Origin: Candidatus Aenigmatarchaeota archaeon
Lineage (GTDB): Archaea; Aenigmatarchaeota; Aenigmatarchaeia; PWEA01
Reading direction: 5' to 3'
NCBI GenBank assembly: GCA_046539325.1
Contig: JBKHHD010000002.1
Coordinates: forward strand, 30,426-62,425
DNA length: 32,000 bases
In this document: positions 1,246-30,523 of the stretch, one piece after another
Layout of the letters: each line of letters starts with the position of its first letter
Position numbering within the stretch: the first letter of the stretch is position 1
The notes under the pieces: generated by a model
Told to the model about the DNA's origin: nothing
Seen by the model: the letters and a program-made list of their open reading frames with translations, nothing else
Database searches by the model: none
Made by a program: the position numbers and the translations under genes

Positions 1246-2475
1246 ATGTTCCTAACACAGCTACTGGTACAGAACTCGGTTATAATCGTTGCATCACTGA
1301 TATCGCTGTTCGTCACTATATACTTCCTCCTATGTTTCATCGAAAATCGCGGAAATCTAGACAGTCCGGAGTCCAACTGGACGCCATACGTATCGATACT
1401 TGTGCCGGCCTACAACGAGGAAGGCATTATAGGTAAGACGATAGAAGGACTGATGGAGATGAACTATCCTAATAAGGAGATCATCGTCGTGGACGACGGA
1501 TCCACGGACGACACGGTGGAGGTAGCGAGGGAAGCCTCGGGAGGCGATGACAACATCAGAATACTGACCAAGGAAAACGGTGGTAAACCAAACGCCCTAA
1601 ACTACGGCCTCGACTACTGTGAAGGTGAACTTATATTCTCCCTGGATGCAGACTCCGTCCCGAGGGAAGGAGCTATAAGGAATATGATCTCCCACTTCGA
1701 GAAGGACGAAAGGGTTATGGCGGTCGTCCCAACCCTCAAGGTCATGGAACCCTCCAACCTTTGGGAGAAGGCACAGGCCGTCGAATACGGAATAACTTCG
1801 TTTCTGCGTAAGATGCTTTCCTTCATAAACTCCCTCAACGTTACGCCGGGTGCACCGATGTACCGCAAGGAGTTCTTCGAGGAGCACGGTGGATTCGACG
1901 AAACTACGGTTACGGAGGACCAGGAAATGGGTCTGAGGATACACGAGAAGGGATACAAGGTGGACCACGCCATAGATTCTGTGGTCTACACGAAGGCACC
2001 GGACGATATGAAGGGGCTGAAGACACAGAGGGTAAGGTGGAACTACGGAAAGCTAGAGAACCTTGCAAAATATAAGCATATGTTGAGCAGGAACTACGGA
2101 AATCTAGGCACCTTTTACCTACCCACGACGCTGGCTTCCGTGGTGGTTCCTATAGCCCTTCTGTTGTACATAGGTGCGAACTCACTGGATAGACTTTACA
2201 GTCTTCTACGTCACCAGTACCTAATAGAGTTCGACCTGGAGTACCAGATGGCTTCATTTCTGGAGTTCGGGTTCTCGCCCAACATAGCCCACGTTATCCT
2301 CGGGTTTCTGATACTGTTCTCAGTAGTCACGTATATTCTGGCAAGGAGAAGGGTAAAAGAAATAGGTTTCAAGCTACCGTACATCTTCTACCTCTTCATC
2401 TACATATGGATACTTGCCGCATTCCAGTTTATAGCTCTTGTCCGGTTCATATTCGGAAGGAAACCGAAGTGGTAA
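1246..2475 (+). CDS. Family 2 glycosyltransferase, membrane-integrated processive beta-glycan-synthase type
   Basis: N-terminal TM helix. Motifs VVDDGSTDDT, SLDADS (DxD), TVTEDQE (TED) and QRVRW (QxxRW). Several C-terminal TM helices. Confidence 0.85.
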   Translation: MFLTQLLVQNSVIIVASLISLFVTIYFLLCFIENRGNLDSPESNWTPYVSILVPAYNEEGIIGKTIEGLMEMNYPNKEIIVVDDGSTDDTVEVAREASGGDDNIRILTKENGGKPNALNYGLDYCEGELIFSLDADSVPREGAIRNMISHFEKDERVMAVVPTLKVMEPSNLWEKAQAVEYGITSFLRKMLSFINSLNVTPGAPMYRKEFFEEHGGFDETTVTEDQEMGLRIHEKGYKVDHAIDSVVYTKAPDDMKGLKTQRVRWNYGKLENLAKYKHMLSRNYGNLGTFYLPTTLASVVVPIALLLYIGANSLDRLYSLLRHQYLIEFDLEYQMASFLEFGFSPNIAHVILGFLILFSVVTYILARRRVKEIGFKLPYIFYLFIYIWILAAFQFIALVRFIFGRKPKW

Positions 2476-2520
2476 GGAGAAAGATATTAATAGTAGGCTC
2501 GATTAAACTTCTCTGATAGC

Positions 2521-3882
2521 TTGAAAGATCTCGAAGAACTGAAGGGATGGATTTCAGAAAACAGGTACCTTCTCTTGATATGGATAGCTTCGACGCTGTT
2601 CTTCCTTTACCAGCAGTCCACGGGACTTTCCTGGGACTTCGCCGTCTACGAGATGAACGCGGAGTACCTCTGTTGTGACGGACACTACTTCGAGTGGGCC
2701 AGACCACCCTTTGCTCCGCTCCTCATGATCCTTTCCTCTGCCTTTACACTGTTCACGTGGAACTACGCAGGATACGTATACGTCGTCATAGTTTCCGCGA
2801 TATTTGGCTTCGGCTCCGTGAAATTCGCCGATGAGTTCGGAGTCGATAGAAGGCTGTTCTACGCTCTCATACTGTCGCCCTTCGTTCTAAACATGGGCCT
2901 CATGGCAGGCACGGAGCTGCTGACCCTGGGCTTACTGATGTTTTTTCTCTCCTACATAAAGGATATCAAGGGAGCCGTGTTTATGGGTTTGGCAGGTCTT
3001 TCGAGGTATCCTGCATTTATCTTCTTTCCGCTGGTCCTCTTCCAGAAGAACTGGAAGAAGATCCTCGCTTCCCTACTGGTCATAGGCCTCGTTGTCTCGC
3101 CTTGGCTTCTTTACAACGAGATGAAGAGGGACGACCCCATCTACTCCTTAGAAAACAGTTACGCACTCAACGTCGAGCAGCGACATGACACGGTCGATGA
3201 GCCCGGACTCATGGACTTCCTATTGCCGATAGGTTACTACCTTCCCCTTCTCTTCCTCGGAGCTTACTTCAAGTGGAAGGAAAACTGGGGCGAAAAGGAC
3301 TGGATTATAGTCGCCTTCACAGCTCTGGCCGTTTTCTCCTATCTCCGAACGCCTCACAAGGAACCAAGATACCTCTTCAACCTAATACTTCCAGCGGCCT
3401 ATTTTTCATACCACAGTCTGAGAGATCGGCACGAAAAGATTTTTATTGTAGTTCTGGCTGTAAACCTGGTTCTTGCTGGAGCGTTCTTCGTACCGCTCGG
3501 CGAGTACGCAGACATGGGTGAGGCCGTACAAGCAACGGGTAACTGCATGGCAACATCGAATCTCTGGGTGCCGATGAACTACCACGGAAAGCCAACCGAG
3601 CCAATCTCAACCAACATCTCAGAATCCCTGGAACAGGGGAATAGGGTAGTCCTTTTCAAACACGCCTCCAACTACGAGACTTACTTGAACAGAATCGACT
3701 CAGAACAACCGATAATCGAAGAAACCGAAATCTATACAGTTTTTGGTTACGAAGATAGATGTTCACCGGAGAGAAAGGCCGACCGTTCCTTCCTGGTAAG
3801 GGAAGGGGAACTGAACGACATAGAAGGCTGCGAGGATATGTTTCCTTGGTTTATCTGCGTATTCTCTCCTTCAGTAGCATGA
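2521..3882 (+). CDS. Polytopic membrane protein, probable GT-C fold glycosyltransferase (ArnT/PMT-like)
   Basis: About 10 predicted TM helices. The first loop, SWDFAVYEMNAEY...FEWARPPFAPLLM, resembles the D/E..Y and (K/R)PP(L/F) signatures of GT-C enzymes. TTG start sits 28 nt downstream of AAGATATTAATAG (2481-2493). The C-terminal ~110 aa are soluble. Confidence 0.6.
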   Translation: MKDLEELKGWISENRYLLLIWIASTLFFLYQQSTGLSWDFAVYEMNAEYLCCDGHYFEWARPPFAPLLMILSSAFTLFTWNYAGYVYVVIVSAIFGFGSVKFADEFGVDRRLFYALILSPFVLNMGLMAGTELLTLGLLMFFLSYIKDIKGAVFMGLAGLSRYPAFIFFPLVLFQKNWKKILASLLVIGLVVSPWLLYNEMKRDDPIYSLENSYALNVEQRHDTVDEPGLMDFLLPIGYYLPLLFLGAYFKWKENWGEKDWIIVAFTALAVFSYLRTPHKEPRYLFNLILPAAYFSYHSLRDRHEKIFIVVLAVNLVLAGAFFVPLGEYADMGEAVQATGNCMATSNLWVPMNYHGKPTEPISTNISESLEQGNRVVLFKHASNYETYLNRIDSEQPIIEETEIYTVFGYEDRCSPERKADRSFLVREGELNDIEGCEDMFPWFICVFSPSVA

Positions 3883-23836: not shown

Positions 23837-25480
23837 CCTCACTCTGAATTACTTTACGCTGTTAAGGCGTGCCGGCGTAGTTGAGCCTTGGACGTTCTGA
23901 CGTCCAGCGATGACCAAAATTCCAGGCACGAACAAATGATGAGGAAGGGAGTTCAATCTCTTCTGATGTAGGAAACCCGAGAATGAAACCGAGAGGTTTC
24001 AGTAGCCAAATGTAGTTGGTGTGACGCGAGGACTAGTTTACTCTCTTACCAATTCCGGTTGATCCTGCCGGAGGCTACCGCTATCGGGATTCGATTTAGC
24101 CATGCGAGCCGAGGGTGGTTTATCCGCCCGGCGGACTGCTCAGTAACACGTAGTCAACCTCCCCTCAGGACGAGTATAACCCCGGGAAACTGGGACTAAT
24201 ACTCGATAGGAAAGGGATACTGGAATGTTCCCTTTCTGAAATGTTCCGACGCCTGAGGATGGGACTGCGGTGGATTAGGTCGTTGGGGGTGTAACGGACC
24301 TCCAAGCCTATAATCCATACGGGCGTTGAGAGACGGAGCCCGGAGACGGACTCTGAGACACGAGTCCGGGCCCTACGGGGCGCAGCAGGCACGAAACTTT
24401 TACAATGCGTGAAAGCGCGATAAAGGGATCCCGAGCGCCTTGGCATTGCCAAGGCTTTTTTGGAGTGTAAAAAGCTCCACGAATAAGGGGTGGGAAAAAC
24501 GGGTGCCAGCCGCCGCGGTAATACCCGTGCCCCAAGTGGTGACCACGATTATTGGGCCTAAAGCGTCCGTAGCCGGCCGGATGGGTCCTCAGTGAAATCC
24601 TGCGCTAAAACGTAGGACTTGCCGGGGAAACTATTCGGCTTGGGACCGGGAGAGGTCGGGGCTATTCCTGGGGTAGCGGTAAAATGCTGTAATCCCAGGA
24701 AGAGCGCCTGTGGCGAAAGCGCCCGGCTGGAACGGCTCCGACGGTGAGGGACGAAAGCCAGGGTAGCGAAGGGGATTAGATACCCCCGTAGTCCAGGCCG
24801 TTAACGATGCCCGTTTGGTGTAGCATCTCCTACGTGGAGGCGCTGTGCCGTAGCGTAGGTGTTAAGCGGGCCGCCTGGGGAGTACGTCCGCAAGGATGAA
24901 ACTTAAGGGAATTGGCGGGGAAGCACCACAAGCGGTGGAGGCTGCGGTTTAATTGGATTCAACGCCAGGAACGTTACCAGCGCTGACAGCATGATGACGG
25001 TCCGCTTGAAGAGCGTACCTGAAGCGCTGAGAGGTGTTGCATGGCCATCGTCAGCTCGTACTGTGAAGCGTCCGGTTAAGTCCGGTAACGAGCAAGACCC
25101 ACATCCCTAGTTGCTATCGTGTCCTTCGGGACGCGAGCACTCTAGGGAGACCGCCTCCGACAAGGGGGAGGAAGGTGTGGGCGACGGTAGGTCTGTATGG
25201 CCCGAATGCGCTGGGCTACACGCGGCCTACAATGGTCGGGGCAGCGGGTTGCGACTCCGAGAGGAGGAGCTAATCCCAAAACCCGGCCTTAGTTCGAATC
25301 GAGGGCTGAAACCCGCCCTCGTGAAGCCGGAATCGCTAGTAAGCGAGGGTCACTATCTCTCGCTGAATACGTCCCTGCTTCTTACACACACCGCCCGTCA
25401 AGCCATCCGAGTGGAGCCTTGATGAGGCTTGGGAAATTTTCTCAGGTCTAATCAGGGCTCCGCAAGGAGGGCTAAGTCGT

Positions 25481-26294
25481 AAATTAATTGCGACCTCGGA
25501 CCGAAAGGTTCGAGAAAACCCGGCTGTATGCTGGAAACTCCACTCATACCAGGCTGCCGGAATTGTCCTAAGCTTTTTATCAAAAGCACGGGCAATGTAA
25601 GGTAGAGAGGTCTGGTCGTTGTGGACAATCAGCAGGGAAGCTCACTACTCTGACCTGAAAAGGTGAGGTATAGCCCCTCAGAGACTGCACGCCGGCCCCT
25701 AACGGAGCTGATTGGATGTCACAAAGCTACCTCAAGGGAATACTTCACGATGCCACGGAAAGGAAGTACACCTACCGAATTTCACAAAAGAACAAAGATT
25801 TCATTGAAAAGCTGGCCGAAATGATTCGAGATCTGGGCAAAAAAGCCTGGATTTAAGAAGAAGGCAACCGAGGAATATACGTAGTGGAATTTAGTAAGAG
25901 TGGTCTCAAAAAGCAAGAAATCGAAACAAGACAAGAAAAAAGAGACTATATCCGTGGCTACTTCGACGCTGAAGGAAGCGTTCCAAGGAGTCCTGAAGTG
26001 CGACCTTACATTTACTTCGCACAACAGGACAAAAAAGACCTAAAGAAAGTGAAGAAATTCATTGAGGAGTTTTAAATTGAAACAGGCAAACTCCACAGAC
26101 CCAGTAAGGAGTCTGATCCAGATTACTGGAGATTTTACATCTCCACAAAGGATCACAAAAAATTTGCCAGAGAAATAGGCTCTTGGCATCCAAAGAAAAA
26201 TCAGCTGCTGAGGGAGATGAGACAGTCCACGCCTCGATGCGAGTCGGGGTGACACTTTCAAAGTGTCCGAACACCATTATGGTGTGAGCATGTG
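25481..26294 (+). mobile_element. 814-nt intron in the 16S rRNA gene (group-I-like; junction ambiguous by 2 nt because of a duplicated AA)
   Basis: P1-like pairing GUCGUAA (25476-25482)/UUGCGAC (25488-25494) with a U:G wobble at the splice site. Last intron nucleotide is G 26294. GAAA-capped hairpin at 25495-25514. R-like UCAGAGACUGCAC at 25678-25690 and S-like GAUGCGAGUCGG at 26236-26247. Two P9-like hairpins at 26251-26285. Confidence 0.7.
25716..26252 (+). pseudogene. Double-motif LAGLIDADG homing endonuclease ORF with two in-frame TAA stops
   Basis: One frame reads MSQSYLKGILHDAT...KKAWI*EEGNRGIYVVEF...YIRGYFDAEGSV...KKFIEEF*IETGKL...WRFYISTKDHKKFAREIGSWHPKKNQLL. Stops are at 25854-25856 and 26073-26075, with no frameshift. 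Confidence 0.75.
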
Positions 26295-26335
<41 letters not shown>

Positions 26336-26404
26336 AATTCATACCAACTACAGGCTAAAATTTCGGGTTTCCTAAAGAACATACGGGCCCGTGGTCTAAT
26401 GGCA

Positions 26405-26441
26405 ATGCAGAACCGTGTTCCGATTTACGGTTTGCACCGGA
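26405..26441 (+). other. 37-nt insertion in the D-loop of tRNA-Ala (putative intron; junction ambiguous within duplicated AATG)
   Basis: Removing it gives the D-arm GTCT-AATGGCAA-TGAC. The insert folds as TGCA-G-AACCGT(G)..(T)ACGGTT-TGCA. Confidence 0.6.
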
Positions 26442-26480
26442 ATGACGTCGCCCTTGCAAGGCGAAGACTGTGGGTTCAAA

Positions 26481-26576
26481 AGAGACCACTTTGGAATGAA
26501 AACACTTTACTGAAAACGGAGTTTTCGTAAAGATCCAAGCTTCGTTTGAAATATTTTCCAAAGGGTTTTCTGGAAT
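26481..26576 (+). other. 96-nt insertion in the T-loop of tRNA-Ala (putative intron)
   Basis: Removing it restores GTGGG-TTCAAAT-CCCAC. Internal helices are CTTTGGAA (26489-96)/TTCCAAAG (26556-63) and a 12-bp hairpin at 26505-26532. Confidence 0.6.
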
Positions 26577-26616
26577 TCCCACCGGGTCCACCAGTACTGT
26601 TCGCGATTTTAGAAAG

Positions 26617-26960: not shown

Positions 26961-29929
<2,969 letters not shown>

Positions 29930-30067: not shown

Positions 30068-30523
30068 GTGGTGAGCTGGAGAGGGACCACCGGGATAGTT
30101 TGGATGAGGTTGTTTTCCTTCACAGGAAACACCCTTGTATTCCCGGAGGAAGCTCCTCCCACCCGTTGTGCTGTAAAAGTGCAACGAGGCCCAGGCTCGC
30201 AAGAGTCCGTCCTGAGAGGGAACGGAACAGGGAACAGAAACGATACCCCCGCGCTGGAGCGTTGAAAGCTGAGAAGGCACGGAGGGATGGAACGTACCCT
30301 GATCTGGGTGGTGCAAGACCAAATAGGCTCCGGGAAATGGATGTGCCTTGCACGTCGGTCTCTTGGAGCGGGTAGGTCGCTATTTGGAGTCCGTGAGGGC
30401 TTCAAACTTGGAAGCATCTGCTTCCGAGAAGATGAATGTCCCGAAGACCTGACATGGACGCGGACTTCGTCCACGTCGTTTTTGGGTCCGAACAGAAGGA
30501 GGGCTACTCCCAGCACACCACAC
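30068..30523 (+). ncRNA. rnpB: RNase P RNA (archaeal type-A-like)
   Basis: P1/P2 pairs GTGGTGAGCTGGAGAG (30068-) with CTCCCAGCACACCAC (-30521). CR-I GGAGGAAGCTCCTCCCAC. P4 is AGC[U]CCUCC/GGAGGGCU with the conserved bulged U. GCAAGACCAAATAGG and GGGTAGGTCGC blocks are present. CR-IV AGATGAATG. CR-V ACAGAAGGAGGGCTAC. Confidence 0.9.

Follow-up and report, generated by a model that had tools for sequence, protein, structure and literature searches.

A predicted IB4-like group I intron with an interrupted LAGLIDADG frame at position 1498 of the 16S rRNA gene of an Aenigmatarchaeota-labelled archaeon

The stretch of DNA analysed here (32,000 nt, hereafter the window) carries an archaeal rRNA operon on its + strand, delineated by an Rfam scan, in which a 16S rRNA gene starting at 24052, the only one in the window, is followed by the genes for 23S rRNA and RNase P RNA (Table 1). 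An Rfam scan of the spacer gave no match; a split tRNA-Ala gene is probable in the same operon. Near its 3' end the 16S gene is interrupted by an insert of 814 nt, as an earlier note made from the sequence alone had claimed, and the junctions read ...GGGCUAAGUCGU (25480)/AAAUUAAUUGCGAC... on the 5' side and ...GAGCAUGUG (26294)/AACAAGGUAGCCGUAGGGGAACCUGCGGCUGGAUCACCUCC (26335) on the 3' side. The exons of 1429 and 41 nt add up to the 1470 nt of the earlier note and rejoin, as it had stated, at AAGUCGU, giving the sequence AAGUCGU/AACAAGGUAGCC. An AA repeat allows three possible intron boundaries, and only with 25480/25481 and 26294/26295 does a U precede the 5' site and a G the 3' site; the last intron base is thus the G (26294) already read as such. 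The insertion site, which we take to lie between U1498 and A1499 (E. coli numbering, counted from A1518/A1519 and A1492/A1493), agrees with the previous placement at about 1498-1500, at the junction of helices 44 and 45 by the decoding centre.

Table 1. Features of the interrupted 16S rRNA gene and of the operon around it (positions in the window)
Feature	Position	Strand	Basis or remark
16S exon 1, 1429 nt, last base U1498	24052..25480	+	SSU_rRNA_archaea 1448.5 bits; junction read from sequence
Predicted group I (IB4-like) intron, 814 nt	25481..26294	+	Rfam RF00028, nhmmer, covariation
P1: GUCGU (exon) + AA (intron) 25476-82 / internal guide UUGCGAC 25488-94	25476..25494	+	MFE fold
P2 hairpin, 8 bp, GAAA (GNRA) loop	25495..25514	+	MFE fold
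P3 5' strand CCGGC	25520..25524	+	pairs with 25691-95
P4-P6 domain	25529..25677	+	Rfam alignment, MFE fold, covariation
P4	25529-34/25629-34	+	98.9% paired; one U:A to G:C change (A1)
P5	25539-43/25621-25	+	Rfam alignment, MFE fold
P5a/b/c extension	25544-25620	+	includes hairpin 25565-93
P6, with its own extension	25635-37/25675-77	+	Rfam alignment, MFE fold
P7 5' strand G(A)GACUG, A25682 bulged; predicted guanosine-binding helix	25681..25687	+	pairs with 26223-28
P3 3' strand GCCGG; with P7 forms the P3/P7 pseudoknot	25691..25695	+	covariation
P8 5' strand: CCCU 25697-700 + AGCUGAUU 25706-13	25697..25713	+	direct reading
LAGLIDADG homing-endonuclease frame, P8 loop, 178 codons + TGA	25716..26252	+	translation, Pfam, homologues
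In-frame TAA, first	25854..25856	+	Tyr in 15/15 aligned homologues (A2)
In-frame TAA, second	26073..26075	+	variable position in A2
P8 3' strand: AGGG 26211-14 + AAUCAGCU 26199-206	26199..26214	+	complementarity by direct reading; aligned
J8/7 AGAUGAGA + P7 3' strand CAGUCC	26215..26228	+	Rfam aligns to consensus aUgAAGAUAUAGUCu
P9, invariant GCGA loop	26232-38/26243-49	+	98.1% paired; both-side changes in 6/7 pairs
P9.1	26251-57/26261-67	+	centroid fold
P9.2	26271-76/26280-85	+	centroid fold, MFE
Terminal guanosine (omega-G), 3' splice site	26294..26294	+	directly precedes AACAAGG
16S exon 2, 41 nt: helix 45 + anti-Shine-Dalgarno end	26295..26335	+	direct reading, AACAAGGUAGCCGUAGGGGAACCUGCGGCUGGAUCACCUCC
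23S rRNA	26962-29927	+	Rfam scan
RNase P RNA	30071-30518		Rfam scan
Intron-less 16S allele, sequence around the insertion site			...GGGCTAAGTCGTAACAAGGTAGCC...

The group-I-like character that the earlier note had ascribed to the insert, and had proposed to check with the Rfam model Intron_gpI (RF00028), is supported by covariance models, homology and covariation. In a permissive scan of 25300-26500, the model matched 25475-25697 with 30.6 bits (E=1.2e-5) over model positions 5-158, namely P1 through P3'; a weaker match at 26049-26249 (13.7 bits) takes in J8/7, P7 and P9. These scores (30.6 + 13.7 bits) fall below the Rfam gathering score of 50 bits because an ORF of ~500 nt splits the match, while seven introns at the same site score above it (51.8-74.2 bits), the closest relative of the window intron (locus L025) reaching 57.9 bits in a single match. 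A profile was also built for nhmmer from 11 relatives, including the published intron IB4.19 and leaving out the window intron and its closest clade, and its two matches in the window, 25474-25713 (E=8.2e-27) and 26198-26255 (E=2e-6), coincide with the two ribozyme halves flanking the ORF.

Relatives were collected by searching genomes, one per species, for the 3' exon pattern GAACAAGGTARCCGTAGGGGAAYCTGCGG preceded by a G, which imposes the terminal G on all same-site introns retrieved, so that this base is an independent test in the window only. The search yielded 23 loci, 21 with a G-ending insert at the same site and two point variants; complete introns could be defined at 17 of the 21, with lengths of 216-819 nt and with hosts among the Micrarchaeota, further DPANN archaea and the Patescibacteria, and the remaining four are cut by the end of the stored stretch. 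With the same pattern at least 120 loci were found in metagenomes, where the matches listed include 64 complete introns (207-812 nt) and none of the window's own subtype. The 16S rRNA scores as bacterial at L004, L008, L011, L015, L017 and L020 (at L011 the adjacent 23S does so too, and L009 is bacterial by its adjacent 23S only) and as archaeal at L005, L014, L025, L026 and L029, hence the intron occupies the same site in both domains. The introns of L008, L009 and L011 have an archaeal-type core, and those of L004, L015, L017 and L020 form a second, more divergent CPR subtype in which P7 and P3' are separated by an extra insertion. The shared site in DPANN archaea and CPR bacteria is consistent with a transfer of ribozyme and endonuclease between the domains, among ultra-small cells that occur together.

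The closest relatives of the window intron are nanohaloarchaeal, namely L025 (GCA_042218075.1) and L026-L028 from metagenomes, and have in common with it a G:C pair in P7, the CCCCU...AGGG base of P8, the sequence of P9 and the hairpins P9.1 and P9.2. They differ in the exon sequence GUCAU with the guide GUGAC, a compensated change in P1 relative to the window, and in the state of the endonuclease gene, which is intact in L025 (its product is 69% identical to that of the window) and interrupted in the window, whereas the introns of L026-L028 are only 308-309 nt long and lack a gene, a homologous one standing free just downstream of the 16S gene. The source of the window is a metagenome-assembled genome and homologous introns occur in bacteria from the same kinds of habitat, so that the intron of another organism might have been joined into the contig during assembly or binning. 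We consider such an artefact extremely improbable, since the insert has matching archaeal 16S exons on both sides, its contiguous 222-kb contig also carries host genes, the 23S and the RNase P RNA, its guide sequence fits the host exon, and its closest relatives, L025-L028, are found in other DPANN archaea.

For the analysis of covariation, 15 introns were aligned with MAFFT (alignment A1), the ORF-bearing P8 loop being cut in silico to 16+16 nt. When pairs were counted on a structure written from the window row, 89.8% of the cells were paired over the whole structure, compared with 77.8% in shuffled controls and 34-45% in controls with slid 3' partners, and 28 of the 51 pairs were changed on both sides; none of 500 shuffles reached any of the observed pairing measures. 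The unconstrained MFE fold of 25474-25700 (-89 kcal/mol, z=-5.1) contains P1, P2, P3, P4, P5 with a three-part extension, and P6, and in the Rfam alignment the core elements follow the canonical order P3-P4-P5-P6-P7-P3'-P8-P7'-P9. P2, P5 and P8 are 69-73% paired in A1, and their lower pairing is attributed to register shifts that indels cause in the MAFFT alignment.

At the 5' splice site, U25480 and G25490 form a wobble pair, and this U:G is present in all 15 sequences of A1, where P1 is paired throughout (100%). Position -2 pairs as G:C in 11 sequences and as A:U in four, and covaries with the exon (GUCGU/GCGAC versus GUCAU/GUGAC). The loop of P2 is of the GNRA type in 15/15 aligned introns, and both helices had been placed correctly in the earlier note, the MFE fold and the family alignment agreeing on P1 with its U:G and on the GAAA-capped P2. 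P3, by contrast, had been given a wrong 5' strand, GCCGG at 25556-60: it is the CCGGC at 25520-24 that pairs with 25691-95, with 100% pairing in the 15 sequences and changes on both sides in three of the five pairs, and a P3 at 25556-60 was rejected because the positions of P4 and P5 make it topologically impossible. Similarly, the hairpin at 25565-93, formerly taken for P4, J4/5 and P5, belongs to the P5 extension, and P4 and P5 lie elsewhere.

The folds and the family alignment uphold the proposed R-like element UCAGAGACUGCAC, whereas the sequence proposed as S, GAUGCGAGUCGG, turned out to be part of P9, namely its loop and 3' strand, the actual S being AGAUGAGA-CAGUCC at 26215-28. P7 is 100% paired in A1; five of its pairs are invariant, and at the sixth 11 sequences have A:U where the window, L025, L026 and L027 have G:C, a compensatory change. 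G25683:C26227, beside the bulged A25682, lies in columns that are invariant in 15/15 sequences, and by analogy with G264:C311 of Tetrahymena we take it to be the guanosine-binding site. The GAGACAGUCC variant of the J8/7 region is also found in L026-L028, and the placement of P8 agrees with that in relatives without an endonuclease gene. Further downstream, the fold of the 3' tail contains the two hairpins that had been noticed 3' of the ORF: the centroid structure of 26229-26300 gives P9, P9.1 and P9.2, while the MFE structure swaps P9.1 for a longer-range helix. P10 amounts to only ~2 bp.

Taken together, the insert is very probably a group I intron from the IB4-like family found at SSU rRNA position 1498 of both DPANN archaea and CPR bacteria; the assignment to this family, predicted from sequence, rests on homology to introns already classed as IB4, IB4.19 being part of the profile. 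A decay of the ribozyme was considered and rejected, as only three substitutions are private to the window at columns where the other 14 introns agree, all three in the poorly aligned internal loop of P5; no substitution unique to the window was found in A1 at core columns invariant in the other introns. The odd bases of J8/7 and P7 were likewise rejected as signs of decay, being common to L026-L028 and compensated.

The element could nevertheless derive from a group I intron and no longer splice itself, so that it would be retained in the rRNA, cut out without ligation, or wholly dependent on protein cofactors. This would fit the decaying endonuclease gene, the very short P10 and an Rfam score below those of the relatives, and some bacteria are known to leave group I introns in their rRNA unspliced, according to work cited in PMC11270868. 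We regard it as quite unlikely, as the conserved core and the clade-specific compensation in P7 point to continuing selection on the fold, and as decoding would, judging from ribosome structure, hardly tolerate 814 extra nucleotides or a broken chain between A1492/A1493 and helix 45 in the one 16S gene that the window contains. Because the core is conserved and compensated and the site lies between the decoding adenines and helix 45, we infer that the intron splices, and it may do so independently of proteins.

The classical intron type of archaeal rRNA is the bulge-helix-bulge (BHB) intron, which the tRNA splicing endonuclease excises and whose exons the ligase RtcB joins, and LAGLIDADG genes are known in such introns (PMC6125680), so that a conventional BHB intron with an endonuclease gene has to be weighed as well. 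The host presumably has the splicing endonuclease, given that its operon probably includes a tRNA-Ala with non-canonical intervening sequences. However, the hBHBh' motif (two 3-nt bulges and a 4-bp helix) is absent in all nine registers that give the mature junction, the best of which forms three of the four central-helix pairs and no flanking helix. A relaxed motif occurs once among 1024 position pairs, where ~0.7 are expected by chance, and would excise 817 nt out of register. The earlier note's failure to draw a convincing BHB at the junctions is thus borne out by an exhaustive register test, and with a covarying group I core that accounts fully for the sequence, a BHB intron is very unlikely.

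As a group I intron, the insert would be removed as follows. The operon would be transcribed as a single precursor, in which the intron would adopt its P1-P9 core structure, including the P3/P7 pseudoknot. P7 would bind an exogenous guanosine, which would attack the phosphodiester after U25480, this U being held by P1 in the U:G pair with the guide. G26294 would then take over the guanosine site, and the free 3'-OH of U1498 would attack after G26294, ligating the exons to the universal AAGUCGU-AACAAGG and releasing the intron. Endonucleases of the type encoded in the P8 loop spread such introns by cutting intron-less 16S alleles. The ribozyme, which the cell would need for a working 16S rRNA, is still intact in the window.

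The frame in the P8 loop encodes a protein of the LAGLIDADG_3 family (Pfam PF14528; 68.6 bits against a cut-off of 22.5) with two LAGLIDADG-type motifs, YLKGILHDATE and YIRGYFDAEGS, in which D12 and D84 are invariant in an alignment with homologues (A2) and would be catalytic by analogy. The ORF has 290 homologues, the best of which match it in length and share 69-72% identity with it; a PDB sequence-profile search with the endonuclease returned nothing at E<=0.01. It begins three bases past the 5' strand of P8, and its 3' end overlaps the 3' strand of P8, J8/7, the 3' strand of P7, and P9, so that the last ~18 codons lie in the core. Two TAA codons interrupt the frame (Table 1), the first of which is one base away from TAY; apart from the Tyr at this codon, the frame keeps each of the 49 further residues that are invariant or nearly so in A2, and there is no frameshift. 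A reassignment of TAA in the host was rejected: TAA closes 10 of the 29 host ORFs in the window, many of them with further stops or the next gene close behind, hence the host code is standard and the in-frame TAAs are real stops.

Most likely, therefore, the endonuclease gene is a recently inactivated pseudogene, whose product would be inactive. The 49 residues kept would be somewhat unexpected for a neutral pseudogene, so that the inactivation would have to be very recent or the frame still be used. Such use despite two TAAs, through low-level readthrough or as a splicing helper (maturase), appears quite unlikely. Homing endonuclease genes cycle through invasion, decay and loss, according to an established model. 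Of 85 same-site introns among the matches listed, 29 are without a gene, 50 have an intact one and six, including that of the window, an interrupted one, as the homing cycle predicts.

Group I introns at this site are already on record. A survey of 39 archaeal group I introns (Nawrocki, Jones & Eddy 2018; PMC6125680) described SSU/1498 as a new group I intron site, with three IB4 introns, namely IB4.8 in Nanohaloarchaeota and IB4.19 and IB4.26 in Micrarchaeota. The earlier note's view that a group I intron would be notable here, archaeal rRNA introns being classically of the BHB type, is hence out of date (PMC6125680). One of the loci retrieved here, L010, is IB4.19 itself (MNVH01000001.1 13564-12830, 735 nt) with identical boundaries, and aligns throughout with the window intron. 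The IB4 introns at SSU/1498 (PMC6125680) resemble that of the window in the site after U1498, the guide UUGCGAC and the LAGLIDADG_3 gene in the P8 loop, and share with it the core blocks GCUGUAUGCUGGAA, CAAUCAGCAGGGAAG, CCCCUCAGAGACU.CACGC and AGUCC and the GCGA loop L9. The window differs in its host label, Aenigmatarchaeota instead of Micrarchaeota or Nanohaloarchaeota, in larger extensions of P5 and P6 and two extra 3' hairpins (P9.1 and P9.2), in the P7 pair (G:C, compared with A:U in the Micrarchaeota introns), in J8/7 (GAGAC, compared with GAUAU) and in the two TAAs that break the endonuclease frame.

Position 1498 of the 16S rRNA is also listed, with LAGLIDADG proteins, in a 2024 study of rRNA insertions in CPR bacteria (J Bacteriol; PMC11270868). 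The inserts of CPR/Patescibacteria at 1498 are of the group I type and carry LAGLIDADG genes like that of the window, but have bacterial hosts, and LAGLIDADG_2 is mentioned for them (PMC11270868), compared with LAGLIDADG_3 in the window. BHB introns such as the 16S introns of Thermoproteales (PMC4496867) and those of the I-DmoI type likewise lie in archaeal rRNA and bear a double-motif LAGLIDADG gene, yet they lack a ribozyme core and are spliced by proteins at a BHB, which is absent in the window. The window intron is a further example of a published intron type at exactly SSU/1498 and no new kind.

The intron misleads the annotation of the gene that it interrupts. In the cmscan output a complete SSU_rRNA_archaea (model 1-1478) spans 24052-25525, the false 3' end at 25525 arising because the P2 hairpin of the intron is aligned to helix 45, and the Infernal/Rfam annotation misses the true 3' end at 26295-26335, which comprises helix 45 and the anti-Shine-Dalgarno sequence; the same false 3' end is found in the relatives L005 and L026. 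Furthermore, the intron splits the site of the universal primer 1492R, and such organisms would therefore be missed by full-length 16S amplicon surveys. This practical value for primer sites and for the annotation of 16S 3' ends exceeds the biological novelty, as SSU/1498 is a recurrent group I site in DPANN archaea and CPR bacteria whose biology is already established. What is new here is the Aenigmatarchaeota-labelled host, and a homing element that appears to have been caught in decay, with its ribozyme conserved and its gene stopped twice.

The archaeal small-subunit rRNA model places the 16S 3' end within the group I intron: the cmscan match (24052-25525; model positions 1-1478) is flagged complete and ends at 25525 because the P2 hairpin of the intron is aligned to helix 45, and the real 16S 3' exon (26295-26335) is omitted from it. 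The identical false end was seen in two further loci, L005 and the nanohaloarchaeal-type L026. The search pattern, the 3' exon sequence preceded by G, also catches insert-free 16S sequences in which G replaces U at position 1498 (AAGUCGG directly followed by AACAAGG). Among the matches listed, L003 and L006 are of this kind, as are 42 of the 120 loci from metagenomes. Many of these G1498 records are ~1.5 kb long and may be amplicon sequences. On L017, a Saccharibacteria contig with a group I intron at the same site, a group II intron D1-D4 match was also obtained (1130-1218), which falls outside the Rfam 16S span of 1512-3865.

Downstream of the 16S gene, the 16S-23S spacer holds a probable tRNA-Ala(UGC) gene in pieces whose order is kept (26385-26593), split at non-canonical positions by two intervening segments of ~35 and ~95 nt. 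The gene was missed by ARAGORN and Rfam in the native sequence; when both segments were removed in silico with 4406 different combinations of boundaries, ARAGORN called tRNA-Ala(tgc) for 2065 of them. A clean bulge-helix-bulge motif (BHB) was sought for each segment and resolved for neither. Farther on, 143 nt downstream of the 23S rRNA gene, the scan identified an RNase P RNA of archaeal type that has big insertions and a score barely over the gathering score; no 5S rRNA was found within the window.

RNA features in and beyond the 16S-23S spacer (window coordinates)
Feature	Position	Strand	Score
tRNA-Ala acceptor 5' strand and D arm	26385 to ~26409		
tRNA-Ala anticodon arm	~26446-26466		
tRNA-Ala T arm, 5' part	26470-81		
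tRNA-Ala CCCAC-CGGGUCC-ACCA	26580-93		
Archaeal RNase P RNA	30071-30518	same as 23S	85.7 bits vs gathering score 84

Among the same-site introns, those of three nanohaloarchaeal-type contigs, L026 (1099-3525), L027 and L028, are 308-309 nt long and lack an endonuclease gene; in all three a homologue of the endonuclease is free-standing, ~110-150 nt downstream of the 16S gene. The free-standing homologues P0006 and P0007 share ~61% identity with the endonuclease encoded in the window. A free-standing homologue (P0031, 3001-3516) also occurs ~160 nt downstream of the 16S gene in L029, a Hadarchaeaceae metagenome-assembled genome. At the 16S position that the intron occupies in the window, L029 carries a 32-nt insert with a 10-bp hairpin (~2760-2810; AAGUCGU-AACUCUAGGAGGUCACCCCUCUUAGGGCGAUA-AACAAGG), in which neither a group I core nor a BHB in register was found. 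Three readings of this short insert are possible: a remnant of an intron, a mini-intron, or an expansion that is retained.
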